Shown here: in pieces, positions 274 to 45,041 of the stretch
Layout of the letters: the number at the start of each line of letters is the position of its first letter
How positions within the stretch are numbered: position 1 is the first letter of the stretch
Source of the DNA: Candidatus Micrarchaeota archaeon
GTDB taxonomy: Archaea > Micrarchaeota > Micrarchaeia > Norongarragalinales > Norongarragalinaceae
Reading direction: 5' to 3'
Assembly (NCBI GenBank): GCA_964408425.1
Contig: CAYOZI010000001.1
Location: 8,861-72,860 of the forward strand
DNA length: 64,000 nt
Position numbers and translations under genes: made by a program
Notes under the pieces: generated by a model
Seen by the model: only the letters and a program-made list of their open reading frames with translations
What the model was told of the DNA's origin: nothing
Databases searched by the model: none

Positions 274-2172
274 TCACGTGTTAATGCAAAGCGACTTCAT
301 CACCGAATATTCATAGTTGTTGCCGGGAGTGCTGTACTGAAAACGGGTCACGCTGCAGCCGGCAAGCGTGAAACCCGAACTGCAAGAGGGCGTTTTGTCT
401 ATCCACTTTGCCACGCCGCCGCAAGCGTTGTGGCCGTTGCAGTAAGCCCAGCAGTGCGGAATTGTCCAGTCTATGTTCGGATAACCGCTAAAATCGAAAG
501 TCGGACCCCACTCCACGGCGTTGGTCCAACCAGTCACGATAGCCGCCATCGGAAGCACGTAAATCTTGTACTGCGTGTCAGGACCCCCGCCTCCGGCCGG
601 GCAGTTCGTCCCGTCTTCCAGGCAAACGTCCTTGCCGCCCACCTTAGCAGTCGTCCCCCTTACGGACAAAGAACCAACTGAAGCCGAACCGCTTGTTCCC
701 GACCCGACCGTCAAAGGACCGTTTAAAACGTTCAACCCGCTCGAACTGCCTACGCCCAAGCCGGTAGTTATATACACTGGAATATCCGCGCCGCTAGCCA
801 AATTCCTGCCCCGGATTTGAGACGAAGACAAGCCCGAGTGCAAAGTCAAACCGGCGAAAGACCCGCCGTCCGCAGGCAGCAACCCGCCTTCAACCTGAAT
901 GTATTTCGGAATGCTCCCGGCAGCTTGCGTAAGCTTCAGGAAAGGATAATTAGAATTGCCGGTCCTTCCGAGGGTAATATCCCCGCTGGAAGGCTGGACT
1001 GTCGTTGCGGTTACCGAATCTGAAATTATTCCTGAAGTGAATTCCAAAGGAATGATCACGCCGGAAGAAAGCCTCATCCCGCGGATTAAAACGGTGTTTC
1101 CAACGTAATTGCTGCCCAAAGTCAAGCCTCCAAACCCTGTGTCCGAGCCGTACAACGGCCCCCGCAATTCGGCATAACGCCTCGAGTAAAGCGAGTCTCC
1201 CGAGGGAACCAGGTTCAAAGACGGGTAAGTTGACAACGCCACTTCACCAATGCGGATGGACCCGCGGTTTTGGCTCGTGTCGGCAACGCGAACGTTCGGA
1301 GTATAAACGGTCGGAGTTTGCAAAGCGCCCTGCATCACTTCCGTTCCAGAAGGATTGTCCTTTCGCACGTAATTCCCTCCGGACGAGCCCGAACCGCAAT
1401 TCCCGTTCTTCATGCAAACTTCGTAAGTCGTAGTGCCGTTTTTAACGTACAACCTTCCCGCAGCAGCCACTTCAACAGTCACGCTGGTTCCTGCAGCTCC
1501 GGAAGCAGGCTGAATCACATTCGTTTTCACAGGACCTGGAGAAACGGTCAAAGCGCCTTGAACTGCAACGCCCGACTCGAACGTAACGGGGTCTTGAAAA
1601 GTGGCGTCAGACTGGAATATGGCGTTCGCGGAGAAATAACTCGGAACCCTGAACCAAGCCCAGGAGTACTGCGACTGCGGGTCGTTGGGAATGCCGAAAA
1701 TAGAGTTTCCCCTGAAAATCGACAAGAACGGGTAGGAACTGCCGGAATAATAATAAAATTTCAGGATACTGTCGCCGCCAAAACCGCCGACCAGCAAACG
1801 CCCGGAAGCATTTGCGTTTACAGCCTCAAAGTCGGTTGGAACGGCAACACCGCTTTGAATCTGCGTTGGGTAGAAAACCTGGCACTGGAAGTTAGTCGAG
1901 CTGAACGACAGTCTCAGCGAATAATCGGCGTTTGAAGAAAACAAACCCCCGTCGAAAGCCAGGTCGAAAACACCGTTCGAGCTTGTAGAGTCGGATTTGG
2001 TCATCAAAACGGAACCGGAACAATCGGCAGTGGAATAAACGTTTCCAACGACGTTTCCAGACTGCGGGCTTCCAGTGGCGTTAATAATCCTTCCTTGAAC
2101 GTTCAAAACCGGCAGGGCGAAAACGAAACCCATCGCGAAAAACAAGCCCAAAACGAAAAACAAGCCCTTCAT
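274..2172 (-). CDS. Large secreted surface protein (paralog 0); signal peptide MKGLFFVLGLFFAMGFVFALPVLNVQGRI; C-terminal DVCLEDGTNC region shared with the 5735..7615 protein
   Basis: 633-aa ORF. The ORF track starts at 2184 with 4 extra codons; start chosen at MKGLFF. The N-terminal 30 aa and the coding nucleotides are identical to those of the 5735..7615 gene. Confidence 0.7.
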   Translation of the reverse strand: MKGLFFVLGLFFAMGFVFALPVLNVQGRIINATGSPQSGNVVGNVYSTADCSGSVLMTKSDSTSSNGVFDLAFDGGLFSSNADYSLRLSFSSTNFQCQVFYPTQIQSGVAVPTDFEAVNANASGRLLVGGFGGDSILKFYYYSGSSYPFLSIFRGNSIFGIPNDPQSQYSWAWFRVPSYFSANAIFQSDATFQDPVTFESGVAVQGALTVSPGPVKTNVIQPASGAAGTSVTVEVAAAGRLYVKNGTTTYEVCMKNGNCGSGSSGGNYVRKDNPSGTEVMQGALQTPTVYTPNVRVADTSQNRGSIRIGEVALSTYPSLNLVPSGDSLYSRRYAELRGPLYGSDTGFGGLTLGSNYVGNTVLIRGMRLSSGVIIPLEFTSGIISDSVTATTVQPSSGDITLGRTGNSNYPFLKLTQAAGSIPKYIQVEGGLLPADGGSFAGLTLHSGLSSSQIRGRNLASGADIPVYITTGLGVGSSSGLNVLNGPLTVGSGTSGSASVGSLSVRGTTAKVGGKDVCLEDGTNCPAGGGGPDTQYKIYVLPMAAIVTGWTNAVEWGPTFDFSGYPNIDWTIPHCWAYCNGHNACGGVAKWIDKTPSCSSGFTLAGCSVTRFQYSTPGNNYEYSVMKSLCINT

Positions 2173-2178
2173 TTCAAC
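2087..2178 (-). repeat. ~92-nt exact repeat (signal-peptide coding region plus upstream), copy A; copy B at 7528..7619
   Basis: An identical nucleotide stretch encoding MKGLFFVLGLFFAMGFVFALPVLNVQGRI in two paralogous genes. Confidence 0.8.
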
Positions 2179-2201
2179 GCCCACCCCGCTTTAATGCAAA
2201 C

Positions 2202-3305
2202 TCAGCCCAAGGTTTTTTTCAATCCGAACAAAAACCCTAGCGCCAAAAGCTGAACGAAAAACCCTGCGAAACCCGCTATTACTGCCGCCATCGCTCCCGA
2301 AAACAACGCGAAGCGGTTGTACACCAACCGGAATTCGGGAATGGCGTAAAGCTGTTGTTTCAACAACCCCCCCTGGCTTCCGGCCGCGCTTATTATGGCA
2401 GTATTGACGCCTTGGGCTATCCGCCCGGAGTTTTCCTTGAAAGCGTCGTAAGTGTAATCCACGGCTTTAACGTGAAAAGCTGCGACCAACGAATCCTGCT
2501 CCGCTTGAGACAATGTAGTATAACCGGGATAGTTTTCCACGAGAAAATCCCTGGACAAATCCTGAGTCACGATGGAAGCAAAATCCTCTTTCGTGATCGA
2601 CGAGGAAATGGAATTCGAGTCTATGTTAATCCCTCCCGTCGCAGCCCTCGCCAAAAGCGAGTCCAAAAGCAAGTTCACGTGCGCATCCTTGTTTTCCGCG
2701 ACCTTGTAGAAAACCACGAAAAACGCCAACAGCGCGAAAAGCATCATTCCGGCGCTGAGAATGGCGAACGCGCGCGGCAGGGAAAAACGGGGCGATATGG
2801 AGGAGACTATCGCGCAGAATGAAATAACGGCTGCAAAAGTCAAGAACGGGGTTAAAAGCCAAGGGTAGAATGCAAAGCCCATTACCGCCGAAACCATGAA
2901 AGCCAGTATTGTCACTAGCACGCCCGACACTACGCCCAAGCCCAACGAGTAATACATTGCCAGCGCTATGCAAGCTGCAAACAACAGGACGAAAATGATG
3001 AACGAAACGCTGTACAGCTTCGTGATGGTGAACGAAGCCCTCTGGAGGTCGAACAAGTCCATCGTCTTGAAATTGCTCTTGTCGAACATTACGAGCGAGA
3101 AGGTGAAGAAGCAAAGAAGAGCTATGAGAAAAGGCAGTTTCGAGTAAAAATCCTTGCCGATTTTGATCGTGAGGGGAATGACTATCTGACGTTCGGCAGG
3201 AGGAACGTTCTGCTTTGGGCTCGGCTTGGGCTTGGAAGCCTTCAGCTCCTCGTCCGACTCCGGCATTATCAACGACAATGGGTCTTTGGAAGCTTTCACG
3301 GGCAT
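2202..3305 (-). CDS. Polytopic membrane protein (~7 TM helices plus a ~130-aa soluble insert), function unknown
   Basis: The ORF track extends to 3617 and overlaps the divergent pyrB start. Trimmed to MPVKASK (ATG at 3305), which leaves a 52-nt divergent intergenic region. Confidence 0.5.
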   Translation of the reverse strand: MPVKASKDPLSLIMPESDEELKASKPKPSPKQNVPPAERQIVIPLTIKIGKDFYSKLPFLIALLCFFTFSLVMFDKSNFKTMDLFDLQRASFTITKLYSVSFIIFVLLFAACIALAMYYSLGLGVVSGVLVTILAFMVSAVMGFAFYPWLLTPFLTFAAVISFCAIVSSISPRFSLPRAFAILSAGMMLFALLAFFVVFYKVAENKDAHVNLLLDSLLARAATGGINIDSNSISSSITKEDFASIVTQDLSRDFLVENYPGYTTLSQAEQDSLVAAFHVKAVDYTYDAFKENSGRIAQGVNTAIISAAGSQGGLLKQQLYAIPEFRLVYNRFALFSGAMAAVIAGFAGFFVQLLALGFLFGLKKTLG

Positions 3306-5193: not shown

Positions 5194-5271
5194 GCTTTAA
5201 GCCCACCTGAAACGAAACTAAAAAATAAACGGAAAATAATTGGGACGGGAAGGAATAAAAAACGCGGTTTT

Positions 5272-5718
5272 TCAGCCTATCGAAGAAAGGCATTGTTGCT
5301 TCAATTCTTCAGGCAGCCCGTCGCAAGGAACCGCTTCTGAGGGGGAAAAACCGTCTGAAGCCGCAGGCTGGTTTTCCATAGACTGAAGGCACGCGGTTTT
5401 CAATTCATCCGGCAAACCGTCGCAAGGCTGCGGTTCCGTGGAAGAAGCCGAAGCGGCTTCAACCGAATTCAAACACTCTTGCGTCAATTCTTCCGGCAAG
5501 CCCGAACACGGGGTTTCTTCGTCGGGGTTTAAAGAAGGCGAGGGACTCGCTCCTCCGACTACGTTCACCGCCACGACTCCCGTCGCAGGAGGCTGAGGCG
5601 CGACAGGCACGGGATTCTGGGACGGCAGCTGCAAAACCCAGGAAAAGAAAACCAGAGCCAAAGCCAAGACTCCCAACGCCACAAGCAAAACCGCGTTTTT
5701 ATCCAACTTGAAACCCAT
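5272..5718 (-). CDS. Small secreted/anchored protein with three Cys-bracketed repeats (PC[SD]GLP[ED]ELxxxCL)
   Basis: N-terminal hydrophobic anchor/signal (AVLLVALGVLALALVFFSWVLQL), a Pro-rich linker, and 3 repeats each with two Cys 11 residues apart. It is a paralog of 9088..9558. Confidence 0.65.
   Translation of the reverse strand: MGFKLDKNAVLLVALGVLALALVFFSWVLQLPSQNPVPVAPQPPATGVVAVNVVGGASPSPSLNPDEETPCSGLPEELTQECLNSVEAASASSTEPQPCDGLPDELKTACLQSMENQPAASDGFSPSEAVPCDGLPEELKQQCLSSIG
5286..5370 (-). repeat. ~85-nt identical segment shared with 9102..9187 (3' end of the Cys-repeat genes)
   Basis: Direct sequence comparison: gaaaggcattgttgcttcaattcttcaggcagcccgtcgcaaggaaccgcttctgagggggaaaaaccgtctgaagccgcaggctgg. 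Confidence 0.75.
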
Positions 5719-5734
5719 TTTTCACACCCCTAGT

Positions 5735-7615
5735 TTACACTTTCCCGCACAACGACGTTACGACCCTGCCCATAGTGTTCGGACAATTAATCAGGCCAAT
5801 CGAACCGCCGCACATTTCGTCGGTATAGCTGCATCCTTTCAACACAGGATAATCGCCAGGGCAAGCTGGGGTAACATCCACCAGAGGCCCCACTCCGATG
5901 ACAAAACCGAAGTCCGAACACGTATCGGAGCCAGAACCATCATTGCACCTCGCTATGCAAAGGGGAGGCTTGTCGTAAACATTTTGAAAGTCAAGCACGT
6001 AGAACTGGAGATCATTCCTGTCCACTCCGATGAACTCCCCAATCTGGAAATAATTGAAGGTAACAGGAGAACTGCTTCCGGACCTGGTCTCCAAGAATCT
6101 TGAAACGTACTTCACTGAATAATCCGTCTGGGCTTTGCAATTAGTCCCGTCTTCCAGGCAAACGTCCTTGCCGTTGACAGTCGCGGAAGAACTCCGTACT
6201 GCAAGAGAACCCACTGAAGCGGAACCGCCCGTTCCCGAACCCACGGTCAACGGACCGTTTAAAACGTTCAACCCGTTCGAACCGCCTACGGTCAAACGCC
6301 CGTCCACAGCAGCATCTCCGCTTACGTCCAAGCTATCATCAATATTGACTGCAGAAGCACCTTGAGCGGAAATCAAAGTGTTCAACAAGGTCAACTTCGA
6401 CGCAACGCCGGCAGCGCCGATGGTGATTTCCGGAACGTTTGTGCTAGCCTCTTGCACCTTAAACATCACGGTGGTTCCCGTTTGAACGGTGAAGGGAAGA
6501 TAGCTGTTGAGGAATACGGCCACGCCCTGCTGCCCCCACAGGCTGACGGCATTGGCTTTAGGAAAAGAAGAACCAGGAACGGCCACGTTCGGGTATTTGA
6601 TAGCGTTTGCAACCAATTCCGAACCGGTTCCGCTCAAAACCACGTCCCCGTTGAAAGTGGAAGTTCTCGGCGTTGAAGAAGAGCCGACAGCGAAATTGTT
6701 CAAAACCGCAACTGGATTGTTGACCGTCTGGGTCCCGTAACCGGAAGGCTTGACGACGTAATTCACGTTGTCAACACCCCCTCCGCTTGGACAGCCGGTC
6801 CCGTCTTTCAAGCAAACTTCCTGCGCAACGCCACTGCCTTTCTTCACCACCGCCTTTCCCGATTGCCCCACTTGCAAGGTCAAGTCGTTCGCTCCCGTAG
6901 TGGCCGTAGTGCTTACAGAATTGGTTTTAACGCCGCCGGCGCCCGAAACCGTAAGCCCGCCGCTTCCCGAAACGCTCAAATCATCCCCAATCCTCACAGG
7001 ATTCGCACCCGGACTGTAAATCGACCCGTAAACATTGAGCGCCCCGTAAGCGTTCAAACTAGGCTGGTTTGAATCACCCACAGGCAAATTCAAGTCCCAA
7101 ACGAAAACGTTGTTCCTAAACCAAGAGAACGTGCCATTATTGTAAGGATAGCCGAAAATCGAGTGTCCGTTCAAAACCGAAATCGGCGAGTACTGATTGT
7201 AATAATAATTCGCCCAGAAATCGCCCTTGAAATCGCCAACCACGAGTTTTGACGTGGCATTCGCATTAAGCGGAACCACCGTTCCACCCTGCACTTGAGT
7301 CGGGTAAAACGCCTGGCATGAAACCAGCGTTACGCTGCCGTAAACCAAGCGCAAGTAGTAAGGAGTGTTGGAAGCAAGCAATCCGGACGGGTAATTCAAA
7401 GTAACGTCGAAAATGCCGTTAGTCAGAGAAGTGTCCTGCCCGCTGAACAAAGCTGTTCCAGAACAAGTTGAAGACGCGAAAACCGACGCGGTGACGCTCC
7501 CGGAAGAAACCGGATTCCCCCCGTTCAAAATCCTTCCTTGAACGTTCAAAACCGGCAGGGCGAAAACGAAACCCATCGCGAAAAACAAGCCCAAAACGAA
7601 AAACAAGCCCTTCAT
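5735..7615 (-). CDS. Large secreted surface protein (paralog 1), same signal peptide as 274..2172
   Basis: 626 aa. The MKGLFFVLGLFFAMGFVFALPVLNVQGRI start is identical, the YYLRLVY motif and the C-terminal DVCLEDGTNC block are shared, and the middle is rich in G/S/T/N/V. Confidence 0.75.
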   Translation of the reverse strand: MKGLFFVLGLFFAMGFVFALPVLNVQGRILNGGNPVSSGSVTASVFASSTCSGTALFSGQDTSLTNGIFDVTLNYPSGLLASNTPYYLRLVYGSVTLVSCQAFYPTQVQGGTVVPLNANATSKLVVGDFKGDFWANYYYNQYSPISVLNGHSIFGYPYNNGTFSWFRNNVFVWDLNLPVGDSNQPSLNAYGALNVYGSIYSPGANPVRIGDDLSVSGSGGLTVSGAGGVKTNSVSTTATTGANDLTLQVGQSGKAVVKKGSGVAQEVCLKDGTGCPSGGGVDNVNYVVKPSGYGTQTVNNPVAVLNNFAVGSSSTPRTSTFNGDVVLSGTGSELVANAIKYPNVAVPGSSFPKANAVSLWGQQGVAVFLNSYLPFTVQTGTTVMFKVQEASTNVPEITIGAAGVASKLTLLNTLISAQGASAVNIDDSLDVSGDAAVDGRLTVGGSNGLNVLNGPLTVGSGTGGSASVGSLAVRSSSATVNGKDVCLEDGTNCKAQTDYSVKYVSRFLETRSGSSSPVTFNYFQIGEFIGVDRNDLQFYVLDFQNVYDKPPLCIARCNDGSGSDTCSDFGFVIGVGPLVDVTPACPGDYPVLKGCSYTDEMCGGSIGLINCPNTMGRVVTSLCGKV

Positions 7616-7619
7616 TTCA
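7528..7619 (-). repeat. ~92-nt exact repeat, copy B (see 2087..2178)
   Basis: Identical to copy A by direct comparison of the two stretches. Confidence 0.8.
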
Positions 7620-8984
7620 ACTTCGCCCCCTGCCCCTGACGCGCATGAACAACAACGACATCAAAACCAACGCCAAAACCGCAATCAAATCCGTTTCCGG
7701 CAAAGCCTTCCTTTCCGTAACCAAAATCAAAGCCGGGTTTTCCGCATCTTCATACTTAGTCCCGCCGAAAACCACCCACGCTTCGGCCCTCAAGTTTTTC
7801 CTGTCGAAAACCTCTCCCTCCGCCAAATCGATTTTCGCCTGGAAAACGCCGGGCTTGACAAACTCAATCGGAAGAGTAACGACCTGGTCTCCGCTGTCGG
7901 CGTCAAAAACGCTCAACGCTATGCCTGGATCCGAGACTACAGCCAAACCAGTTTCAGGGTCGTTCAGCAAAATCGTTATCACTGCCTTTTCCTCGAAATC
8001 CGGAATTCCCGTTCCAGAAACCACCTTCCCCCCTTCTATCCTCAAAATATTCCCTTCCCCGCCACCTCCTGTCGGAACGCACTGGCAGGCTTGGCAGGCG
8101 AACCCCTCGCTGCAAGTCAAACCCCTTTCCCCGCACTCTTCCCCGAAATCCGTAGCGTCATTCCCATCACAGAACGAACCTCCTTGTGAAATGACGAATT
8201 GCGTGGGGTTGGGAGTGCACGTTATGAGATTCCCTCCGACAGTTCCGTTAGCCCGGATTAATTTCGTTCCTACAGTCGTGTAAGAACAGGTTCTCGTGAA
8301 AACCAAGCCGTTTTGCGTGAAAGACTGCCTGTTGCCCGTATCGCAATAACCTTGGAAATTAGTCACAGGCCCTTGGGAAAACGTTACAGTAACGTCGGTC
8401 GTTTCAGGGGAAGGCGGAATTGCGCCTGAAGAAGGGTTGATGGAAATCGAGCACGTCGGAAGGCTGACGACTTCAATGGGCTTGAACGGGCAGTTGAACG
8501 CAGGGTTGGAGAAATTGGCGTAAATTGCTTTCGACCCGACGCTCGTTCCGGTGAACTGGGTCGGGTTGGCGTTGTTCGGGTTGAAAGAAACGCCGGTCGC
8601 ATTCGCGCTCCAGGATATAGTCATGACGCCCGTAGGGCAGGAGGATGGAGAGCCGTTGTTAGTGCATTGAGCGGTGAGGGCAACTGGAACGTTTACAGTC
8701 ACCGTATCCGGCCCTGAAACTCCCGTGCAATTCCAACCCGAAGGAACGGTGGTTGCGGCAGGGCATATTCCCCCGTAACACGGGCCCACTTCTGCAGCGT
8801 AACTCCCGCTTGAAAAACTTCCCACTGGAGGGGTTGTGATGACGTATTGCACTTCGTAAGAGCCGGAAGTTTGCTGCAAGCCGGAAGTTCCAATGTGGTA
8901 GTTGGCGGTGTAAGAGCCGGAAGAAGCTTCGAAAGCGAAAGCGAAAACCGAAAACAAAAGCAATGCCGCCAAGACTTTCCGCAA
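7617..8984 (-). CDS. Secreted Cys-rich protein with a C-terminal LPETD motif + TM helix + Arg-rich tail (sortase/archaeosortase-substrate-like tripartite signal)
   Basis: 455 aa; signal peptide; Cys-rich middle; GGGGEG linker; conserved ~150-aa C-terminal domain ending ..RKALPETDLIAVLALVLMSLLFMRVRGRGRS. The stop codon abuts the start of 5735..7615. Confidence 0.7.
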   Translation of the reverse strand: MRKVLAALLLFSVFAFAFEASSGSYTANYHIGTSGLQQTSGSYEVQYVITTPPVGSFSSGSYAAEVGPCYGGICPAATTVPSGWNCTGVSGPDTVTVNVPVALTAQCTNNGSPSSCPTGVMTISWSANATGVSFNPNNANPTQFTGTSVGSKAIYANFSNPAFNCPFKPIEVVSLPTCSISINPSSGAIPPSPETTDVTVTFSQGPVTNFQGYCDTGNRQSFTQNGLVFTRTCSYTTVGTKLIRANGTVGGNLITCTPNPTQFVISQGGSFCDGNDATDFGEECGERGLTCSEGFACQACQCVPTGGGGEGNILRIEGGKVVSGTGIPDFEEKAVITILLNDPETGLAVVSDPGIALSVFDADSGDQVVTLPIEFVKPGVFQAKIDLAEGEVFDRKNLRAEAWVVFGGTKYEDAENPALILVTERKALPETDLIAVLALVLMSLLFMRVRGRGRS

Positions 8985-9087
8985 CCCGACCCAGCCCCCT
9001 GTTCAAGAAACAAATTCTAAACGCAAGAACGATATTTAAACGTTCTAGAATTCACGAGTAAAAACGTCTTTCAAAAAAAGAAGGAAT

Positions 9088-9558
9088 TCAACCTAAGGAG
9101 GAAAGGCATTGTTGCTTCAATTCTTCAGGCAGCCCGTCGCAAGGAACCGCTTCTGAGGGGGAAAAACCGTCTGAAGCCGCAGGCTGGACGTCCTGCAAGC
9201 ACTGCGCTTTCAGCCCTTCTGGCACGCCTTCGCACGGGGAAGAAGGTTCCAAAAGCGAAGGCGGAACTTCGTTTGAAGAGAAAGGCTGAACCGATTGCAG
9301 ACAATCTTGCTTCAAACCACTACCGTCAGGCAAGCCCGAACACGGTTCAACGGAAGTCTCGTCCAAAACAGGCGCGGCTTCCTGGGTAGGCGGGGAAACC
9401 ACGTTTACGGCAACCACTCCCGTCGCAGGAGGCTGAGGCGCGACAGGCGCGGGATTCTGGGACGGCAGCTGCAAAACCCAGCTGAAAAAAACCAGCGCCA
9501 ACGCCAGAACCGCCCAAGCGGCAAGCATTACAATCCTTTGGTCCAAAATCCCTTTCAT
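9088..9558 (-). CDS. Small Cys-repeat secreted protein (paralog 2)
   Basis: Start taken at MKGILDQ (the ORF track begins 8 codons earlier and would overlap the upstream gene). The N-terminal anchor and the C-terminal PCDGLPEELKQQCLSSLG are nearly identical to 5272..5718, including ~85 nt of identical DNA. Confidence 0.65.
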   Translation of the reverse strand: MKGILDQRIVMLAAWAVLALALVFFSWVLQLPSQNPAPVAPQPPATGVVAVNVVSPPTQEAAPVLDETSVEPCSGLPDGSGLKQDCLQSVQPFSSNEVPPSLLEPSSPCEGVPEGLKAQCLQDVQPAASDGFSPSEAVPCDGLPEELKQQCLSSLG

Positions 9559-9560
9559 TT

Positions 9561-10676
9561 TCAACACGCTTCCTGAACGCACAATTGAATTCCGTTCACT
9601 TTCAAGCCTCTGGGAACGAACGGTAAAACACAGTTTCCGCTTGACAACTGCGCATCAACCAAAACGCATTTTCCGGTTAGCTTAGAGAAAATGTTTTTGT
9701 TCACCACGAGATTGTCGTCAACGATAACGTCGTTTCCTGAACTTGAAATCGGGCTGGTGCCTTCAAGCACGATGCTGCCGTAAACGAGCAAGTTCGAAGG
9801 CCTTTTTTCACCTCCGTAGTTTGAAGAGCCGAAGGCAACAGTCGGGCTGAGGAACCTTGCATAAAGGCTGTAGAAAGTCGGCAGGCTGTACTTTCCGAAA
9901 AGAAGGTGGGTGAAAGTCTGGATTTTTTGCTCGTAGAAATAATCCTGCTGGTAGCCGGTCAGCGCGCCTCCAATCACGAAATAATTCGGGGGAAAAGCAG
10001 AAAACAGGGTGTTCACAGGCAACCGAACGCTGTAAGCCTGGCTGAAATCCGCACTCTCTCCGGCGTAAACGTCTTTAGCCGACACTACGCCCTTGGTCAA
10101 AACATTATCAGCATAAACGTTGTTCAGCCAAGCGCTTCCGCCCACGGCTTGCGAATAGTAAAACCTCTTGCGTTCCTTAAGCAATTCCTTCTCACCGCTT
10201 GAATCCACGTAAACCAGGCGCAGGTAATAAGCCGTGTTTATCCTCAGCAAAGGAGGGGCTACCGGAGTGGGCGAAGGGCACGGATAGCCTGCAACGCAAG
10301 CGTAAACTCGGTTAACTTGGGTTTTGGAGAAAGTCAAGTCGAAAACCGAGTCTGCATTCAACTCGTCCGTCTGCGTGAGCAACGGAGTTCCGCCCGTTGA
10401 AGCAGTGTAAACCTCGCCCCTCACGCTTCCCGAAACCGCCTTTCCCAGCGAGTCTTTAATCTTTCCCTGCACGTTCAACACAGGGTATGAAGAGCCTACA
10501 ATTGCGGTAGGAGTCTCGTAAGTATTCAAGTCGAAATCCGTTCTAATGTCCACGGAAACCGAACCATCCGATGGAGCGGTAATGCCAGTAACGTCAATAG
10601 GATCGCTGATTTCCTGCGCGAAAACCAAGCTTGAAACAAACAAAACCGCTAAAACCGAAGCTAAAAATTTTTTCAT
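9561..10676 (-). CDS. Secreted surface protein (shorter paralog of the large surface proteins)
   Basis: Signal peptide MKKFLASVLAVLFVSSLVFA; it shares the PVLNVQGKI and YYLRLVY motifs with the 274.. and 5735.. proteins. Confidence 0.6.
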   Translation of the reverse strand: MKKFLASVLAVLFVSSLVFAQEISDPIDVTGITAPSDGSVSVDIRTDFDLNTYETPTAIVGSSYPVLNVQGKIKDSLGKAVSGSVRGEVYTASTGGTPLLTQTDELNADSVFDLTFSKTQVNRVYACVAGYPCPSPTPVAPPLLRINTAYYLRLVYVDSSGEKELLKERKRFYYSQAVGGSAWLNNVYADNVLTKGVVSAKDVYAGESADFSQAYSVRLPVNTLFSAFPPNYFVIGGALTGYQQDYFYEQKIQTFTHLLFGKYSLPTFYSLYARFLSPTVAFGSSNYGGEKRPSNLLVYGSIVLEGTSPISSSGNDVIVDDNLVVNKNIFSKLTGKCVLVDAQLSSGNCVLPFVPRGLKVNGIQLCVQEAC

Positions 10677-10706
10677 TTCCCAAACCACCCCGTTAATGCA
10701 AAAAAA

Positions 10707-11951
10707 TTATTTCCTTTTCCTCTCAGCTTTTGTTTTGCTTAAGCGAAGGTACAGCAACGCGGTGAAAACCAACGCCAAAACCGCAATCAAATCCGTTTCC
10801 GGCAAAGCCTTCCTTTCCGTAACCAAAAGCAACGCCTTGTCCTCGACATCAGCGTACTCGACGCCGTCAACTTCAACCCACGCTTCAACCCTCAACGTTT
10901 TCTTTTCAAACTCCGCATTGGATAACGAAAGCGTCGCTTCAAAAACACCCGGCTTGCCAGTGTAAGAAACGGACACGGGAATTTCCTCGTCGCTCCCGTC
11001 ATCGAAAACCTTCACGTTCAAGCCGGGGTCGCTAGTCAAAGCCAACCCGGTTTTCGGGTCGTTCAACAAAATAATTACTTTCGCGTTTTCCGAAAAGTCT
11101 TCAGCCGAAGAGCCGGAAAAAACCTTTCCCGCTTCAATCCTCAAAACGCTTCCCACTCTCGAAGAATCGACGCAAGCGCTGCAAGCCACGCAAACCTGGC
11201 TTAAAACGCAGCCGTCATTCAAATCGCAAGTTTCTCCGAACTCGCGAACTCCGTTCCCGCAAACCGCTCCGCCCCCGCCCCCATCGTCAGGAGGAAGGAT
11301 GTCTTCCCTGGCCCTGAAAACCGGGTAGGAATTGGGTTGCGCAGGCGGCGAACGGGCAAAACACTCCACGAACTCTCCGTTTACCACTCCGCTGGAAATT
11401 ACCGTTGAAGTGAAAGGCGGGCTTCCTTGATAAAAGCAAACTCCCTCGAACTCCAAGCCAGTAGGGTCCGGAGAAAACTGGGTGGTGATTTCGCCGTTGT
11501 ACCCGCAATCGGCTTCGACCGAATCCTCTTCAGGAACGCCGGAAAACGACAGGGTCACCGCAACGTAAGTGGAACTAGAACCCGAATCCGGTTCAAGGAA
11601 AGCAATGCAGGATTTGCCCCCGCCCGGAGGGGTTACGGTAGGAGACGGAATTGGGGTGGGAGTGGCGGAAGGCGTGGGCGACGGGGTTGCGGTCGCCGCC
11701 GCTGAAACGAAAGGACAGGTTTGCCCGTAACACGGGCCCAAGTCCGTGTTCAACTCGCCGTCGTTCGACCCTATCGGCGGCAGGACTATCGAATATTCGA
11801 CGGAATAACCGTCTATTGCAGAAGGTCCTTCGAAACCCGCTGGTCCGATGTGAAAGCTCGTGTAAAAATCGTTGAAATTCGAATCGTAAGAAAAAGCCAG
11901 AGATGAAAAAACAATCAGGAAAAAGAAAAATGCGCTTGGTTTTCCCTTCAA
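10707..11951 (-). CDS. Secreted protein with a C-terminal LPETD + TM + Lys/Arg tail (paralog of 7617..8984)
   Basis: 414 aa; signal peptide; Pro/Thr/Ser-rich linker; GPCYGQTCP and Cys-rich region. The C-terminal domain and the ..RKALPETDLIAVLALVFTALLYLRLSKTKAERKRK are conserved, with ~65 nt of DNA identical to the 7617.. copy. Confidence 0.7.
   Translation of the reverse strand: MKGKPSAFFFFLIVFSSLAFSYDSNFNDFYTSFHIGPAGFEGPSAIDGYSVEYSIVLPPIGSNDGELNTDLGPCYGQTCPFVSAAATATPSPTPSATPTPIPSPTVTPPGGGKSCIAFLEPDSGSSSTYVAVTLSFSGVPEEDSVEADCGYNGEITTQFSPDPTGLEFEGVCFYQGSPPFTSTVISSGVVNGEFVECFARSPPAQPNSYPVFRAREDILPPDDGGGGGAVCGNGVREFGETCDLNDGCVLSQVCVACSACVDSSRVGSVLRIEAGKVFSGSSAEDFSENAKVIILLNDPKTGLALTSDPGLNVKVFDDGSDEEIPVSVSYTGKPGVFEATLSLSNAEFEKKTLRVEAWVEVDGVEYADVEDKALLLVTERKALPETDLIAVLALVFTALLYLRLSKTKAERKRK
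10765..10829 (-). repeat. ~65-nt identical segment shared with 7663..7727 (coding for the ..ALPETDLIAVLALV.. anchor)
   Basis: Direct comparison: aaaaccaacgccaaaaccgcaatcaaatccgtttccggcaaagccttcctttccgtaaccaaaa in both LPETD genes. Confidence 0.75.
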
Positions 11952-12003: not shown

Positions 12004-12885
12004 TTATTTAAACGTTTTTTCCGAAAGCAACGGATTCGCTAAAGGCGAGACGACCGGCGACGGTTGAGCAAAAGGAGAAGGGGAAAGGGAGGGCAGGCTT
12101 GAAGACCGCATAGGAATTTCGGCAATTTTCATTACGCTCGGAACTTGAAAAGTTTGCTTTGATAAAGAAAAAGCGCCGATGTCGGTTGAAACTAGGGAGA
12201 AAGGCGACGAGGTATTCCCAGAAGGAGGCAAAACAGGCTGCACTGCAACCAAAACCTGCGAAAACTGCAAGCCGGGCAAGGAAAAAGGCCGAATCGAAGG
12301 AGTTTCAACTGCAGAACCGTACGGCGGCAAAAACCCCCCGCTTTCGAGCCTGCAACGCAATTTCACGTAGTTGTCCAACTGCCTTCGGTAGATTACCTTG
12401 TTTCTGGAGTCTTTCACAACCACCTCCCGCACGCCGCACGAGAAAGGAGCGAAAAGAACCGCGTTCGGAACGGTTACGCTTGATTCTCGTCCAACGCAGC
12501 CGCCACTGCCGCCGTCAAGAACTCCGCTCGCGCTTCCGAAACACTCGGGAGAGTCGGACAAAACCGTTTTGGTGAAAGAAAATTTGGCGGAAAAAACCGG
12601 TTGTTTCCTCGAATTCCTCAATTCCATCGTGAAATCCCCCGAACCCCCCTGTTTTTGCAAGAACGAGTCGTACAACACCACCCGGTCGACCGAAACCCGC
12701 CCTCCCTCGTTGGAAAACCTGAATGCGAAAACGGGCTTGAGGAAATCTTTCGCAACCGTGAAAAGCCGCTCGCCGCCAGCCTTGCTCAAATCACCTTCCG
12801 AACTTCCGCCGCCCGCCATAGAAAAGCCGCTTGCGCTTGCGCCCAGGATTACGGCGAAAAACAATGCAAACAGCAGTTTATTCAA
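12004..12885 (-). CDS. Secreted hypothetical protein
   Basis: Signal peptide MNKLLFALFFAVILGASASG, Ser/Pro-rich C-terminus; overlaps the upstream metalloprotease gene by 4 nt (operon-like). Confidence 0.5.
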   Translation of the reverse strand: MNKLLFALFFAVILGASASGFSMAGGGSSEGDLSKAGGERLFTVAKDFLKPVFAFRFSNEGGRVSVDRVVLYDSFLQKQGGSGDFTMELRNSRKQPVFSAKFSFTKTVLSDSPECFGSASGVLDGGSGGCVGRESSVTVPNAVLFAPFSCGVREVVVKDSRNKVIYRRQLDNYVKLRCRLESGGFLPPYGSAVETPSIRPFSLPGLQFSQVLVAVQPVLPPSGNTSSPFSLVSTDIGAFSLSKQTFQVPSVMKIAEIPMRSSSLPSLSPSPFAQPSPVVSPLANPLLSEKTFK

Positions 12886-15881
12886 GAAAATCCCTCCAAC
12901 GACTGGTTCAACGACCGTTGGTTCACTTTCCCGAAAGCATCACGCCAAGCGTAATCGCTATCCGTGACAAACCCGGGAGACCAAAACAATACAGGCGAAA
13001 AATCCAGGTAGTAATGGAACAAGACGAACGAAAACCAGTCCCCGCCGCTGCTCATCATCGACCTCACCGTCGGCCTCGCCCCGCTCTCCCCGTCCGTACA
13101 ACCCGGAGGAGTGTAAGACAAGATGCGCGTGTAGTTAACGCAACTCACGTCCCCGTAAATGCAATGCCAGTAATCATCATCAAGAGGCTGTTCGGAACTC
13201 TCGCTATGCAAATAATCCAATTCGGGCTCGCTCAGGATTTTCAACGCGCCCTTGCCCCCGCCAACCAAATCCCCCCACCATTCCATTGCTGTTGAAGAAT
13301 TCGGAGCGCAGCTCGGCATTCCCTCCGTGTTCCCAGGCCACTCGTCTTTCAACCAGCTTAAAGCATGCCCGAACTCGTGCACAACCGCGGCCGTTTCCCA
13401 CCGGTCGTACTCGAACCTAGTCGTAACCATGAAAAACATCGGATAAGCCATCCCCCCGTTTCCGCCAATGTTGTTTGTCGTCAAAACCCCGCGCAAGTCC
13501 GCAGGACAGGACAATACAGCCGCAGTCCAATCGCCCGAACCACCGCTGCAAAACCGCCAGTTCGCCTCGCAGTAATCACCCATGCGGCTGAAGCGCAAAA
13601 AGTTTATCTTCTGCTCTTGGGAGTGCAACGGTTCTATCAACGAAAGCCCTGTGAGAGAAAAGTTGCTGTCGTTGTCGAAACTCGCTTGCCGGTAGTGCCA
13701 CTCCTGCTCGTCGTAAGAATAATTCATCCCGTCCCCGAACAACGCCACGTCCAGCTTAGTCTCTGGGTTGCCGCTGTAATCCCACACGATGCAAGCGTCG
13801 GTATACAAAACAGGCGTGCCAGCCGCGGTGAGGTTGTTGTTCGAATAATCCGGCTCGAAACCCTGCTGGAACGGGTTTGCATTGGCGAAAACCGAGAAGT
13901 CGCTCTCGCCGAAAAACTCTTCAGGAGGAGTCCAGTTGAAAACAACCGTCGAGTTGCCCAAAGCGTTCCACGCCCCCTCGCCCGGCTGGATTTCAAAAGT
14001 GCCGAGCGTCACCGGCTCGGTCCAAAAACCGCTTTCGTTCGCAGGCGTGTAATACTCGAAATGCGTTTCGTTCAAAACCACGCTGATGACCGAAAAAGTC
14101 CCGTTCGGAAAAGGCGCGTTCCCCAAGTTTTTCACTACGACGACAACCTGCCCCGCGTGATTAATGTCAGGCTGCGTCGGGAAGCTTATTTCGTCTACCG
14201 CCAAGTCCGGAACGTTAACAAAAACATTTTGAGAGCGGTTGTTGTTTCCCTCGCTTTCCTCCAAACCGGCAATGTTCGGCTCGTCGGAAACGAACGCCTT
14301 GAGCGAATGGCTTCCGCCCACGCTCGGCGTCCAGTCGAACTGCACCAGGGCAGAAGCGCTTCCGTTCCATAACCCCTCGCTCTTGCTAACGTTCTTGATT
14401 CCTATGAAACGCGCGTCGCTCTGGTTGAGAGTGAAAATATCTCGCGTCAAAACCACGAAAATGTTCGTGGTGTTGGAAGGAAACGGCGCGTTGCGCAAGT
14501 TCGCTATCGTAATGTTGATCGTGGAAGGCTGCAATATTCGCAGAGTTGGGGTGGAAATGCTTTGAACCGCCAAATCCGGCCTATCCACGTTCACGCTCAA
14601 GTTCAAAACGTTGTTCGACTCGCTCTCCTCCACGCCGTTCGCATCCGGAACGTCGTCAACTTCCAAGGTCAAATTGCGCAGCCCCCCGCTTTGCGGAGTC
14701 CAGTCGAAAACAAAACTGTTTTTGCCCCAAGCGAGCCAAACGCCAGCGTTTTTGGAAACGTTCACTTCCTCTACCACGGTGTTCGCGTCTTTCAGCCTAA
14801 CGAAAACATTCCGAGTAGAAGCCGGAATGGAAGCGTTGTTGGCGTTAGAAACGTTGACTTCCACCCGGACTTTCTTCCAAATCGACGGGCTTTGCAAAAC
14901 CCGGATGCTCTGCGCGACCAAATCCGGCTTTGTGATTCCAACCGAAACGTTCATCGCTGCAATATTGTTGTTCTCGCTAACCTCCCTGCCGTAAGGCTCT
15001 CCGAATTCCGGATAATCATCCGCATAAACGTAAACCGGATAATTGCCGCTCTTCATTGGAATCCAGTCGAAAGAAACCCTGCTTTCCCCGTTCGCATTCC
15101 ACGCTCCAGAGTTTTTCGGAATCAAAACCATTCTAGCGCAGCCGTTCGTTTGCATGCACGATTGGAATTCAGCCTGGTCCTGCTCGTCCCAGAACACCCC
15201 GTCGCCGTCAAACCAAACGAAAATCTTTTCAGCAGGATTGCGGCTTGAATCGAAAACGCCGAACCCCACGTTTTTCGAATTACGCACGGTAACATTCACC
15301 CTCTCAAGCTGAAACGCCTCGAAAGGAAGATAGCCTACAGCAAGCCCGCTCAAAGTCAAATCCGGCCTTGCCCCGACGAAAGCCTTCCAATTCACCAAAA
15401 CCCCGTACTCATCCTCGACATTAACAATCCCGTCCTTGTTCCCATCCAACAAGGAACAGGAAACCGTTTCCCCACCAACAACGCAGTTTTCCGAAGAGTT
15501 TTTCCCCGCATTCCCTTCAACCGCAACCAAATCCGGATTGCTCACGTAAAAATCGTCGTTGTAATCGTAAAAAGAAACCGGGCTGCACGAAGAGCCGTAG
15601 TCATACCCCAACGCTGCGTTATCCCTCTCGTCCACAACCCCGTCGCGATTCGCGTCGAACGCTTTGCAAACGATTCCCGTATTCAAATTCCAAGAGCAAG
15701 AGTTTTGCGAAGAGCTTTTCCCGAAATTCTCCCTCAACGGACCCTGGTCCGCATCATTCACAATCCCGTCGTAATTGACGTCCGAATAGCAGGAAGAAGA
15801 ATAGGCGGACGCGAATAGGGAAAAGCCCGCAACTAGGAGCACGAACGCTATGGCAACAAAGGCAAAAATTCGGCGTTTCAT
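12882..15881 (-). CDS. Large secreted zinc metalloprotease (HEFGH) with 3 N-terminal dockerin/EF-hand-like Ca-binding repeats and ~4 CARDB-like repeats
   Basis: ~1000 aa; signal peptide MKRRIFAFVAIAFVLLVAG (ORF track starts 9 codons earlier); DVNYDGIVNDAD, DANRDGVVDERD and DGNKDGIVNVED repeats; four PDL(V/A/T)..S..-type repeats; HExxH at ~13365..13379. Confidence 0.7.
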   Translation of the reverse strand: MKRRIFAFVAIAFVLLVAGFSLFASAYSSSCYSDVNYDGIVNDADQGPLRENFGKSSSQNSCSWNLNTGIVCKAFDANRDGVVDERDNAALGYDYGSSCSPVSFYDYNDDFYVSNPDLVAVEGNAGKNSSENCVVGGETVSCSLLDGNKDGIVNVEDEYGVLVNWKAFVGARPDLTLSGLAVGYLPFEAFQLERVNVTVRNSKNVGFGVFDSSRNPAEKIFVWFDGDGVFWDEQDQAEFQSCMQTNGCARMVLIPKNSGAWNANGESRVSFDWIPMKSGNYPVYVYADDYPEFGEPYGREVSENNNIAAMNVSVGITKPDLVAQSIRVLQSPSIWKKVRVEVNVSNANNASIPASTRNVFVRLKDANTVVEEVNVSKNAGVWLAWGKNSFVFDWTPQSGGLRNLTLEVDDVPDANGVEESESNNVLNLSVNVDRPDLAVQSISTPTLRILQPSTINITIANLRNAPFPSNTTNIFVVLTRDIFTLNQSDARFIGIKNVSKSEGLWNGSASALVQFDWTPSVGGSHSLKAFVSDEPNIAGLEESEGNNNRSQNVFVNVPDLAVDEISFPTQPDINHAGQVVVVVKNLGNAPFPNGTFSVISVVLNETHFEYYTPANESGFWTEPVTLGTFEIQPGEGAWNALGNSTVVFNWTPPEEFFGESDFSVFANANPFQQGFEPDYSNNNLTAAGTPVLYTDACIVWDYSGNPETKLDVALFGDGMNYSYDEQEWHYRQASFDNDSNFSLTGLSLIEPLHSQEQKINFLRFSRMGDYCEANWRFCSGGSGDWTAAVLSCPADLRGVLTTNNIGGNGGMAYPMFFMVTTRFEYDRWETAAVVHEFGHALSWLKDEWPGNTEGMPSCAPNSSTAMEWWGDLVGGGKGALKILSEPELDYLHSESSEQPLDDDYWHCIYGDVSCVNYTRILSYTPPGCTDGESGARPTVRSMMSSGGDWFSFVLFHYYLDFSPVLFWSPGFVTDSDYAWRDAFGKVNQRSLNQSLEGFS

Positions 15882-15996
15882 TGCGTTAAAATATGACGAA
15901 AACAACATTAAAAACTATTATTTTAACCACTAAACAGTTTATAACAAAACGAGTTTTTGATTGCTCGAACGCTACAAGTGGCGTTTTGAAATAAGG

Positions 15997-19683: not shown

Positions 19684-19797
19684 GTGCGGCGACCGGGAAT
19701 CGAACCCGGGCTACCAGCTTTCTGCTCTTTCTTTGGTCAAGCTTTCTTTCGCAAAGAAAGGTTGGAAGGCTGGAATCATACCATTAGACCATCGCCG
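19684..19797 (-). tRNA. tRNA-Gly (anticodon UCC) with a ~43-nt intron at the canonical 37/38 position
   Basis: Acceptor GCGGCGA/TCGCCGC, anticodon stem CCAGC/GCTGG, loop CTTCCA|intron|A, T-arm CCGGG-TTCGATT-CCCGG. The intron (~19719..19761) carries the hairpin TTTCTTTGCGAAAGAAA. Confidence 0.75.
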
Positions 19798-19815
19798 CGC
19801 GAATAATACTGGAGC

Positions 19816-20083: not shown

Positions 20084-21247
20084 TTACAATTTATGGTTGG
20101 TTATGCTTAAAAACGCTTTAAGATTTTCAGGATCATCGCTTATCCAGGCTGGAATAGCATCGGTTGAATTTCTCGAAGGAAAACCGTTCGCTTTAAGCCA
20201 CCGTCCAACAGCCACGCAGGAAACAAAACATTGGTAACTCTTTAGACTCTTTTTCCTGGCGTAAGGAACGGGCAAATTGAATTTTAGCAACACTATTCGC
20301 GCAAAATCCAGGATCAATTCTGTCGAGGAGGAAATGATGTAAAACTGCTTCAGGTTTTTGGATAAGCCGCCATATCTAAGCAGATAAGCGAAAAGCTTTG
20401 CTAGATCGACATCAAGTGAGTTGGGAAGGACAGCCCTTCGCTTGTCGTACAGGAACTCGAGGGCGTTTTTGTCAATCCAAAACGCGTTATCCCAAGCCTG
20501 AACCTTCCGCTCAGCCACCAAAGCGGCTTTTTCCAAAACAAGGTTTTTTCTATTATCAAGCCCAAACCGTATTTCTTTTTGAAACAATGAATTCGAACGA
20601 GTACGTACACCGAATATCATAGATTTGGTCCGATGCCCGTCTTTCCTGAGGTTGGCGTTTTGAATAATGACGTTGGAAGTTTTAATCCCAAAATTCAACA
20701 GCATTTCCTTCAGATCGTTTATGAACGAAATCCCATCATCCAGAAGCAGTTCGTCCTTGTTTAGGTGGAAAGAAACAAGGTATGAATTGAAAGAAGTGGA
20801 TTTGCTAATCCAACCCTCGCACTGAAACGCAATTGAAAGGTAAGCCTTGGAAAAAACGCGGTTTGTTTTTATCCACGCTGGAACCCTAAAAGGCACGAGC
20901 ATCTTGTCGCCTTTCGGAACTCCGGCTTCAAAAAGAAGCTTAGCTACTTTTGAACTATAAAACCTGCACTTATAGCTAAAACCAAAACCAGTTCCCTGTT
21001 CATAGTGGGGTTTCAAACCGAATTTGCTTACAACGATTTTTTCAAAGTCTTTAAGAAAAACAAAGTTTGACGAAGACAGGTAAAAACGACTCAAATTCTT
21101 TCCAAGATGGCCGTCGAACGTCAGGTAACTAACGAGTTTAGCCAAATCCTCGTCTAAAACTAGAGTGTCGGCTGTCATGCGTTCTACCTGCGGGTTAATG
21201 CAAACACTCGCAAGTAAACAGAATTTAAAAACTTGGGCAGACACCAC
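20084..21247 (-). CDS. Double-motif LAGLIDADG-like homing-endonuclease-like protein, free-standing
   Basis: 387 aa with a clear internal duplication: DLAKLVSYLTFDGHLGKNLSRFYLSSS.. and DLAKLFAYLLRYGGLSKNLKQFYIISS... The first motif keeps the acidic residue; the second is degenerate. The stop codon lies 2 nt from the tRNA-Pro 5' end. The likely true start is MTADTL at 21178. Confidence 0.5.
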   Translation of the reverse strand: MVSAQVFKFCLLASVCINPQVERMTADTLVLDEDLAKLVSYLTFDGHLGKNLSRFYLSSSNFVFLKDFEKIVVSKFGLKPHYEQGTGFGFSYKCRFYSSKVAKLLFEAGVPKGDKMLVPFRVPAWIKTNRVFSKAYLSIAFQCEGWISKSTSFNSYLVSFHLNKDELLLDDGISFINDLKEMLLNFGIKTSNVIIQNANLRKDGHRTKSMIFGVRTRSNSLFQKEIRFGLDNRKNLVLEKAALVAERKVQAWDNAFWIDKNALEFLYDKRRAVLPNSLDVDLAKLFAYLLRYGGLSKNLKQFYIISSSTELILDFARIVLLKFNLPVPYARKKSLKSYQCFVSCVAVGRWLKANGFPSRNSTDAIPAWISDDPENLKAFLSITNHKL

Positions 21248-43408: not shown

Positions 43409-43990
43409 TCAGAGTTTAATCACGTTGAACTTCAAAGCCCCCAAAACCAACAGCGCTATTACGATTACCGCCTGCAAAAGCTGGTTGTTCAAAACCAGTA
43501 AGCCCACGTTGAACGAGTGGAGCAAAACGAGAACCAGAACAAGATAAACCAGCCGCTGCACGTTCTTCCAATTCCTGCTGCCCAAAGCCCTTATCGCAAA
43601 ATCGTTCGAAGTGGAGGATATTACGGCTAGGGTAAGGAACGCAAGAAGCCCGAAAACCAGGAAAACGCTGTTCGGAAGGGTGAAAATGATTCCGAAATTC
43701 CAGTTGAAGAAAAAGTTGTATACTAGCAAAACGTGCACTAACGCGAAGAAAAACACGTACAGCCCTATCCAACGCTGTTGCGTGAAAAGAAAGCGGGTTA
43801 GTGGAACGTTTTTCACCCTCACCAGAAGAGGCGTGAGCAAAACGAGAATCAACGTCGCCAAAGCCAGGATTCCGAAGGAACTGACTAAAAACATGATTTG
43901 CGCCGGTCCTGCATAAAAGAGCGACCCGAGCAGGTAAACCAAAAGCGCGATTGCTATCCCGAACGCATTAACCCAGTATTTCCCTTCCAA
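43409..43990 (-). CDS. Membrane protein, ferric-reductase-like/MsrQ-like transmembrane domain (paralog A)
   Basis: 193 aa, 6 TM helices with conserved His in TM helices; paralogous to 44046..44699. Confidence 0.4.
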   Translation of the reverse strand: MEGKYWVNAFGIAIALLVYLLGSLFYAGPAQIMFLVSSFGILALATLILVLLTPLLVRVKNVPLTRFLFTQQRWIGLYVFFFALVHVLLVYNFFFNWNFGIIFTLPNSVFLVFGLLAFLTLAVISSTSNDFAIRALGSRNWKNVQRLVYLVLVLVLLHSFNVGLLVLNNQLLQAVIVIALLVLGALKFNVIKL

Positions 43991-44883: not shown

Positions 44884-45022
44884 GTCCCGCCGGCCGGATT
44901 TGAACCGGCAACCCTCCGATTTCCGCGAACGTTCTCGCGCTTTTTCTTTAACGAACTTTTCTTTTGGAAAAAGAAAAGTTCCAGGCTACAGTCGGATGCT
45001 CAGCCAGGTTGAGCTACAGCGG
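44884..45022 (-). tRNA. tRNA-Tyr (anticodon GUA) with a 65-nt intron at the canonical 37/38 position
   Basis: Exon 1 is CCCGCTG-TA-GCTC..GAGC-A-TCCGA-CTGTAG, exon 2 is A-TCGGA-GGGTT-GCCGG-TTCAAAT-CCGGC-CGGCGGG-A. The intron (44920..44984) carries hairpins GGAACTTTTCTTTT/AAAAGAAAAGTTCC and CGCGAGAAC/GTTCGCG. Confidence 0.75.
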
Positions 45023-45041
45023 GACAAGCCTTTAAAATTTC

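Follow-up and report, generated by a model that had tools for sequence, protein, structure and literature searches.

Two adjacent, diverged three-gene units encoding putative surface proteins in a Norongarragalinales-type micrarchaeon

A stretch of 64,000 nucleotides (nt) from a Candidatus Micrarchaeota archaeon (assembly GCA_964408425.1, contig CAYOZI010000001.1, positions 8,861 to 72,860; here called the window) carries on its minus strand two adjacent, paralogous units of three genes each, A, B, and C. A is secreted and has a tail composed of a short motif, then a hydrophobic helix, then a basic cluster; B is a secreted protein that lacks an anchor; and C is a small protein with an N-terminal membrane helix and three cysteine-bracketed repeats. 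In our judgement there is an even chance that the three make up a lineage-specific, disulfide-rich envelope or attachment assembly of Norongarragalinales-type Micrarchaeota, in which B would be docked on anchored A and C. Very little is known of DPANN cell surfaces, including the manner in which such very small cells anchor envelope proteins and make contact with partners or substrates. The locus offers three undescribed families with a clear logic of export and anchoring, a candidate new anchoring signal in the C-terminal tail of A, and an example of paralogue diversification together with gene conversion. Its significance is limited: only a few groundwater Micrarchaeota lineages have the families, the trio is not obligate, and the functions discussed here are predictions from sequence.

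A first-pass annotation of the window had described six open reading frames (ORFs) on the minus strand, arranged as two adjacent A-B-C units, and this arrangement was confirmed at the coordinates given in Table 1. On five contigs from Rifle groundwater (PRJNA268031) that encode identical proteins, the public gene calls yield the same products (455, 626, and 148 amino acids for A1, B1, and C1, and 371 and 156 amino acids for B2 and C2). Within the units the genes are closely spaced: A1 and B1 are separated by 1 nt (TGA-A-ATG), B1 and the ATG of C1 by 16 nt that include AGGGGTG, A2 and the ATG of B2 by approximately 30 nt that include GGGGTGG, and B2 and the ATG of C2 by 2 nt. Of the gaps first reported (2, 16, and about 2 nt), those of 16 and 2 nt stand, but the A1-B1 gap is 1 nt, and the A2-B2 gap is the longer one just given when measured from the likelier ATG; the start of B2 is most likely this ATG, at 10676, rather than the GTG at 10688, in agreement with the public call and the position of GGGGTGG.

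Shine-Dalgarno (SD)-like GGGGTG sequences precede internal starts in both units. The TATA-box-like 11-mer ACGTTTAAATA has exactly two occurrences in the 64-kb window, one before A1 and one before A2, and may be an archaeal promoter. With its small gaps, its SD-like motifs, its own ACGTTTAAATA box, and a T-run after its C gene, each unit looks like a separate three-gene transcription unit, and the three genes are almost certainly cotranscribed, as had been proposed. A scan for bacterial sigma-70 promoters and hairpin terminators gave results at the level of shuffled sequence; its models are bacterial and not applicable to an archaeon. On a 79.7-kb contig, the NCBI calls for A1 (P0042, 335 amino acids) and B1 (P0036, 613 amino acids) are cut off at their N-termini, losing most or all of the signal peptide and, for A1, the N-terminal domain as well, so that the secreted nature of both proteins would be hidden in annotation-based surveys. 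Similarly, at the PETD-type locus of other Norongarragalinales described below, the public call P0013 (185 amino acids) is a shortened call of a 623-amino-acid ORF that begins with TTG and encodes a signal peptide.

Table 1. Coordinates of the features of the locus (window positions unless a relative, given by its L number, is named)
Feature	Position	Strand	Description
A2	10707..11951	-	414 amino acids, secreted
B2	9561..10676	-	371 amino acids, secreted, without anchor, short B type (375 amino acids if GTG at 10688)
C2	9088..9558	-	156 amino acids, N-terminal membrane helix, Pro-rich spacer, three Cys-bracketed repeats
A1	7617..8984	-	455 amino acids, TTG start, secreted
B1	5735..7615	-	626 amino acids, secreted, without anchor
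C1	5272..5718	-	148 amino acids, N-terminal membrane helix, Pro-rich spacer, 3 x PCxGLPxELxxxCL
B3	274..2172	-	Third B paralogue, 632 amino acids counted from ATG
TATA-box-like ACGTTTAAATA before A2	12005..12015	-	54 nt upstream of A2 start; overlaps end of gene for 293-amino-acid protein
TATA-box-like ACGTTTAAATA before A1	9033..9043	-	49 nt upstream of A1 start
T-run after C2	~9073-9079	-	
T-run after C1	~5254-5263	-	
Multi-pass membrane protein, window	2202-3305	-	
Multi-pass membrane protein, L015	9055-10167		
Multi-pass membrane protein, L016	7160-8299		
Multi-pass membrane protein, L021	7694-8815		

All A, B, and C products look exported or membrane-anchored. Cysteines occur in even numbers in each of the seven (16, 12, 14, 6, 12, 6, and 6), which fits fully disulfide-bonded extracellular proteins. 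The three have no mutual sequence similarity. Scans of all components and their relatives against Pfam, NCBIfam, and PHROGs found nothing above threshold, and profile searches of PDB with alignments of A, B, the B N-terminal domain, and C found no match; the earlier statement that no characterized family is represented holds, and A, B, and C are, judged by these searches, three orphan, undescribed protein families. PHROGs gave no match for B or C and one weak match of unknown function for A2, scans of IMG/VR found no relatives of the locus proteins, and a scan of GTDB with the A alignment found nothing, the window's own genome being apparently not a species representative there. Two sub-threshold matches were discarded: one of B1 to Lysis_col (21.9 versus 27 bits) and one of B3 to Bdello_MAT_N (NF053851; 12.8 bits versus a cut-off of 60, E 0.074), a model that B1 and B2 do not match. 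A word-indexed search of 5.8 billion protein clusters returned three clusters of A type, two of B type, and five of C type.

Both A proteins have a Sec-type signal peptide at the N-terminus and an N-terminal domain of approximately 55 residues with three SxxY/NY-type motifs, for which there is no Pfam model. The middle region is composed of predicted immunoglobulin-like (Ig-like) beta-sandwich domains in A1 and of a Pro/Ser/Thr linker in A2. A Foldseek search with an AlphaFold2 model of A1 returned generic tandem Ig-like matches only (template modelling score, TM-score, <0.2), which we take as a beta-sandwich stack. The C-terminal module joins a CGNGxxExGExCD cysteine knot, an Ig-like domain, and KALPETD followed by approximately 16 hydrophobic residues and a basic cluster. 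The tail of A1 reads KALPETD-LIAVLALVLMSLLFM-RVRGRGRS, and its equivalent is found in A2, in keeping with the LPETD tail first reported, and in 10 other non-redundant proteins. A profile search with the A alignment against 1.84 billion representative proteins produced 19 matches, about 12 with the C-terminal module only and four with the N-terminal domain only; the named carriers of the C-terminal module are Norongarragalinales. The N-terminal domain also heads the short secreted proteins P0021, P0023, P0026, and P0027 (L028/L029) of other uncultured organisms, and P0026 sits among clustered genes for large secreted proteins of beta-helix, CARDB, and PKD types.

The B proteins have a signal peptide and no anchor, and they number three in the window, the first-pass annotation having overlooked B3, which is located between the gene for a 367-amino-acid multi-pass membrane protein and a tRNA-Arg gene (140-214). 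Their conserved mature N-terminal domain opens with LNVQG, which directly follows the signal peptide in B1 and B3 and is found 45-60 residues further in both in B2 and in the orthologue from L008 (Micrarchaeota metagenome-assembled genome GCA_043805205.1). Since LNVQG lies well inside the mature B2 and L008 proteins, PVLNVQG is not part of the signal peptide, as had been thought; by its position across the B proteins it opens the mature N-terminal domain instead. The middle of B1 is Gly/Ser/Val-rich and beta-rich and contains two VCLxDGTxC motifs, and the Cys-rich C-terminal head differs between B1 and B3. B2 has an N-terminal extension, the LNVQG domain, and a Cys-containing C-terminal tail that resembles that of the L008 orthologue. 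This orthologue (1289-3109) contains, at residues ~405-470 in its variable middle, two dockerin-like calcium-binding repeats, DLDGNGQVGVGDI and YDADRMGEVGISDL, which fall below the Pfam threshold and are missing from B1-B3 of the window.

The best-conserved part of C is its helix, the core of which, LALALVFFSWVLQLP (LxLVF[FL]SWVLQ), is nearly invariant across relatives. The earlier description of C as a Cys-bracketed repeat protein stands, each copy having three repeats, with a spacing of C-x10-C in all but the first repeat of C2, which is C-x12-C. C was considered as a type IV pilin-like protein and rejected: inspection by eye showed that the helix is not preceded by a [KR][GA] cleavage motif and that the candidate site is followed by charged residues. 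P0010 (L009, 149-658), a candidate distant relative of C on a low-coverage contig of another sample, was also rejected as most likely a chimeric assembly, because its ORF matches C1 in 40 residues only (92.5% identity, to the C-terminal part), the surrounding sequence being unrelated.

In the alignments, the paralogy of A1 with A2, B1 with B2, and C1 with C2 is far beyond chance. A1 and A2 are 47% identical over the C-terminal 186 amino acids (E 4e-49) and 28% identical over the N-terminal part (E 7e-14), with a middle that cannot be aligned, and C1 and C2 are 63% identical over their full length (E 1e-43). B1 and B2, the latter 255 amino acids shorter, are 34% identical over approximately 120 amino acids of the N-terminal domain only (E 2e-10), whereas B1 and B3 are 34% identical over their full length, with residues 1-27 identical; common to all B proteins are only the N-terminal ~110 amino acids (34-52% identity). 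The pattern of conserved ends and diverged middles that had been reported for the copies is therefore seen in A and C but not in B, where B1 and B2 have only the N-terminal domain in common.

At the nucleotide level, measured in 60-nt windows, the copies are mosaics, and a repeat finder located the same patches. Successive windows of C1 and C2 are 55, 78, 91, 38, 65, 43, 66, and 100% identical, the values of 91-100% falling at the helix and the last repeat. A1 and A2 are mostly 26-60% identical, with a peak of 91% at the segment that encodes LPETD and the helix, and B1 and B3 are identical at the signal peptide and 88% identical at the end of the middle region, compared with 30-50% elsewhere. 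The leader of B3 is itself a mosaic, in which intergenic sequence of B2 type (TTTGCATTAA.CGGGGTGG) is joined to signal-peptide coding sequence identical to that of B1. These patches of 88-100% identity support gene conversion among the copies, as the annotation had suggested, with the segments for export, anchoring, and putative docking being homogenized while the remainder diverges. The proposed tandem duplication is upheld in that two paralogous units are adjacent, but it is not recent: each unit has its counterpart in a different relative (B1 type in L006, B2 type in L008), from which it follows that the units are old, diverged paralogous types.

Presumed intron-containing tRNAs, a family-B DNA polymerase (PolB), and the overall gene content mark the window as archaeal, and named relatives of the components are Candidatus Norongarragalinales or Candidatus Micrarchaeota archaea; the source is accordingly a DPANN archaeon within the Micrarchaeota. 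The expectation that relatives would keep the three-gene order is borne out in part. L008 has the complete order, A-B-C-map-pyrB, at the corresponding chromosomal site, with identities of 35% (A), 38% (B), and 44% (C) to the window proteins and a B of B2 architecture. L006 has PolB-A-B, with an A 53% identical to A1 and a B of B1 type in which the contig ends. Five other relatives (L015, L016, L017, L020, and L021), by contrast, have C only: at this site PolB is followed by the gene for a C-like protein that has two Cys repeats, and then by map, pyrB, and the gene for the multi-pass membrane protein. The C-only relatives suggest that C is the ancestral resident of the PolB-map interval and that A and B were added to it; together with the occurrence of A-type modules without B, they indicate that the trio is an accessory elaboration and not an obligate unit. 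B homologues were found in only three genomes, all of which have a full-length A, and four of the five lie directly downstream of an A gene; for this family the searches were limited to the word-indexed tool and local tblastn.

A second type of locus, seen in L011 (5479-10558, on a 714-kb Norongarragalinales contig), L024 (458-3392), and L026 (668-3495), has the order PETD protein, small Cys-pair-repeat protein, PETD protein, cmk. The small protein is N-anchored, has 184-188 amino acids, and consists of a helix, a Pro-rich spacer, and C-x10-11-C units; in L011 an additional small N-anchored Cys-rich protein is encoded upstream. Its likeness to C consists of this layout and a weak profile match (hhalign probability 74%, E 2.7e-5, 60 columns), and homology is not established. 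The gene order in these three relatives indicates that the pairing of a PETD protein with a small Cys-repeat protein recurs independently of B. PETD proteins occur alone in L012 and L022.

In the assembly that we propose, A would form a stalk built of Ig-like domains, and its module of Cys knot, Ig-like domain, and PE[TS]D tail would serve to hold it in the membrane or to have it processed. C would be a small type II membrane protein that displays three C-x10-C units on the cell exterior by means of its Pro-rich spacer. B would be a large, beta-rich secreted protein that, lacking an anchor, is kept on the cell by docking of its N-terminal domain to A and perhaps to C, and its variable middle and Cys-rich head could be the exposed part that binds a ligand, whether host cell, mineral, or polymer. 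Paralogues would diversify this exposed part, gene conversion would keep the segments for export, anchoring, and docking alike, and A and B would be an accessory elaboration placed upstream of the older resident gene C. A physical complex, a role in a surface layer (S-layer), or attachment to a host we can only infer.

Several observations weigh against such an assembly. B3 has neither A nor C beside it. In the five C-only relatives A and B are absent from the PolB-map site and were not seen elsewhere on their contigs, and other loci (L011, L012, L022, L024, and L026) have PE[TS]D anchor modules but no B. The limited tools used for B mean that its distribution may be under-sampled. AlphaFold2 models, built on three-sequence alignments, have a mean predicted local distance difference test score (pLDDT) of 33.8 for B1, whose fold is not interpretable, and a low-confidence 46 for A1, so that the fibre and stalk shapes are not established. 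Norongarragalinales have, moreover, been argued to be less host-dependent than other DPANN archaea (PMC12892359), which weakens the reading as host attachment.

Three other explanations of the locus were weighed. The PolB-map interval could be a variable hot spot in which A, B, and C are independent cargo on a segment duplicated as a block. The contents of the interval do vary, from C only to A-B (L006), A-B-C (L008), and, in the window, genes for 1008- and 293-amino-acid proteins plus the two units, and C and A-type proteins each occur without the other two. The gaps of 1-2 nt and the shared promoter-like box nevertheless favour co-expression, the A-B-C order is maintained at protein identities of 35-44%, all genomes found to have B also have a full-length A, and a PETD protein is again paired with a small Cys-repeat protein at the second locus; we therefore regard independent cargo as rather unlikely, though deserving more weight than the two explanations that follow. 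In the Sulfolobales, the S-layer operon encodes a C-terminally anchored beta-sandwich stalk, SlaB, and a large anchorless secreted protein, SlaA. By comparison, A and B could be S-layer subunits, an anchored stalk and an outer lattice, since here too one operon joins an anchored, stalk-type beta-sandwich protein to a large, anchorless, beta-rich one, and the S-layers of DPANN phyla are largely uncharacterized (PMC6098224). A lineage-wide core envelope protein would not, however, be expected to be lacking at the syntenic position in five relatives, as A and B are, or to be confined to a few metagenomic lineages, as A is among the 1.84 billion representatives, or to three genomes, as B is in its narrower searches. 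Three strongly divergent B paralogues of different length are equally unlike a lattice-forming protein. No sequence match to S-layer families was found, and the window differs from the Sulfolobales operon, to which it has no apparent sequence similarity, in having a third, small, N-anchored protein, multiple divergent paralogues, and a presence that is patchy even in close relatives. We consider an S-layer role quite improbable. Least probable by far is a viral or mobile-element origin, in which B would be a tail-fibre-like receptor-binding protein on an element integrated next to tRNA genes. The B paralogues combine a constant N-terminus with a variable C-terminus, B3 lies directly beside tRNA-Arg, and its weak, sub-threshold match is to the N-terminal domain of a Bdellovibrio chimeric fibre protein; but B and C have no PHROG matches, the IMG/VR scans found no relatives, genes for an integrase, capsid, or terminase are lacking nearby, the flanks consist of housekeeping genes (PolB, map, pyrB) that are syntenic in relatives, and GC content has no discontinuity.

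Whether the LPETD tail is a true sorting signal, by which a sortase- or archaeosortase-like enzyme would attach A covalently to a lipid or envelope polymer, is a separate question that excludes none of the complex, cargo, S-layer, and viral readings; the alternative is a plain transmembrane anchor. A tripartite layout of short motif, hydrophobic helix, and basic cluster defines the substrates of sortases, exosortases, and archaeosortases (PMC6098224), and the A tail has this layout. The motif [AST][LV]PE[TS]D is invariant in 12 non-redundant tails with differing flanks, several PE[TS]D-tailed proteins are found per genome, and P0021, which shares the A N-terminal domain, ends in a PEF-CTERM-like tail. 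Set against this, six PE[TS]D tails, including those of A1 and A2, have no match to LPXTG_anchor (TIGR01167) even at E<=10, and PETD tails match neither TIGR03024, TIGR04126, nor TIGR02595, nor related PEP-, PGF-, and PEF-CTERM models; marginal matches to curated models were obtained only for a divergent ALAETT tail and a PEF-like tail. All 12 tails sit behind the same Ig-like domain, so the tail could be the conserved end of a domain and a plain transmembrane anchor, although the parts N-terminal to it are very diverse (Ig-like stacks, Cys-rich knots, or nothing). Pfam scans of 30 window proteins detected no sortase or archaeosortase, and the window's ten multi-pass membrane proteins, scanned separately, include no PF09721-type archaeosortase. 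The 367-amino-acid multi-pass neighbour of B3 was considered as a hidden archaeosortase and rejected, having no family match and cysteines that are not conserved in its orthologues. In the literature we found no account of LPETD as a sorting motif or of sortases or archaeosortases in Micrarchaeota. A genuine sorting signal thus seems doubtful, and about as probable as independent cargo.

Compared with known systems, the parts of the locus are orphan and its plan is a familiar one, with secreted proteins, a C-terminal anchor of tripartite form, and paralogue diversification. Like substrates of sortases and archaeosortases, A is Sec-secreted, ends in motif, helix, and basic cluster, and has several paralogues per genome, but its motif fits no curated model and has been seen behind one Ig-like domain only. 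B resembles Bdellovibrio MAT (NF053851) and phage receptor-binding proteins in its constant N-terminal domain and end of the middle region, its variable distal part, and recombination at module borders, and differs from them in that its match is below cut-off and it has no PHROG or PDB match; the B1 model, at the low confidence given above, cannot be read for an elongated trimeric fibre fold. As in cohesin-dockerin scaffolds, anchored proteins could retain secreted ones, and dockerin-like repeats are found in the L008 B and in the 1008-amino-acid protein; no Cohesin or Dockerin Pfam match, however, was found in the A, B, and C proteins of the window. A more speculative combination, to which we give a low probability, somewhat above that of an S-layer role, is that the [AV]LPE[TS]D motif, helix, and basic tail are the signal of an unrecognized sortase-like pathway, that A and C form the membrane base of an attachment appendage, and that B is its exchangeable distal adhesin. 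If so, chimeric fibre adhesins would have an archaeal counterpart in this locus, with B tips shuffled by gene conversion and used for contact with cells or surfaces.

Other features of the window were noted in the course of the analysis. Directly upstream of unit 2 (12004-15908, minus strand), two genes that overlap by 4 nt encode exported proteins of 1008 and 293 amino acids. The larger combines a signal or anchor helix, a CARDB domain (E 5e-12), at its C-terminus a zincin region that contains HEFGH and weakly matches Peptidase_M64, and dockerin-like repeats that are below threshold for Dockerin_1 (15.9 versus 22.9 bits); the smaller has a signal peptide and belongs to no family. The pair is absent between PolB and A in L006 and is thus another lineage-specific insertion in the PolB-map interval. 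In every relative the gene for the multi-pass membrane protein (367-379 amino acids, no Pfam or NCBIfam match) adjoins pyrB. The window genome alone has a B-type gene, B3, next after it, at a distance of 17-29 nt; L020 and L021 lack B3 at this position and have there a gene for a large glycosyltransferase-like membrane protein.

Two tRNA genes of 114 and 139 nt (19685-19798 and 44885-45023, minus strand) are found by Rfam and missed by ARAGORN and presumably contain introns. A 387-amino-acid ORF with a LAGLIDADG-like domain (20084-21247) lies approximately 300 nt from the first of them. Two tandem paralogous genes (43409-43990 and 44046-44699, minus strand), located beside tRNA-Asp, encode six-helix membrane proteins that are ferric-reductase/MsrQ-like (PF01794).

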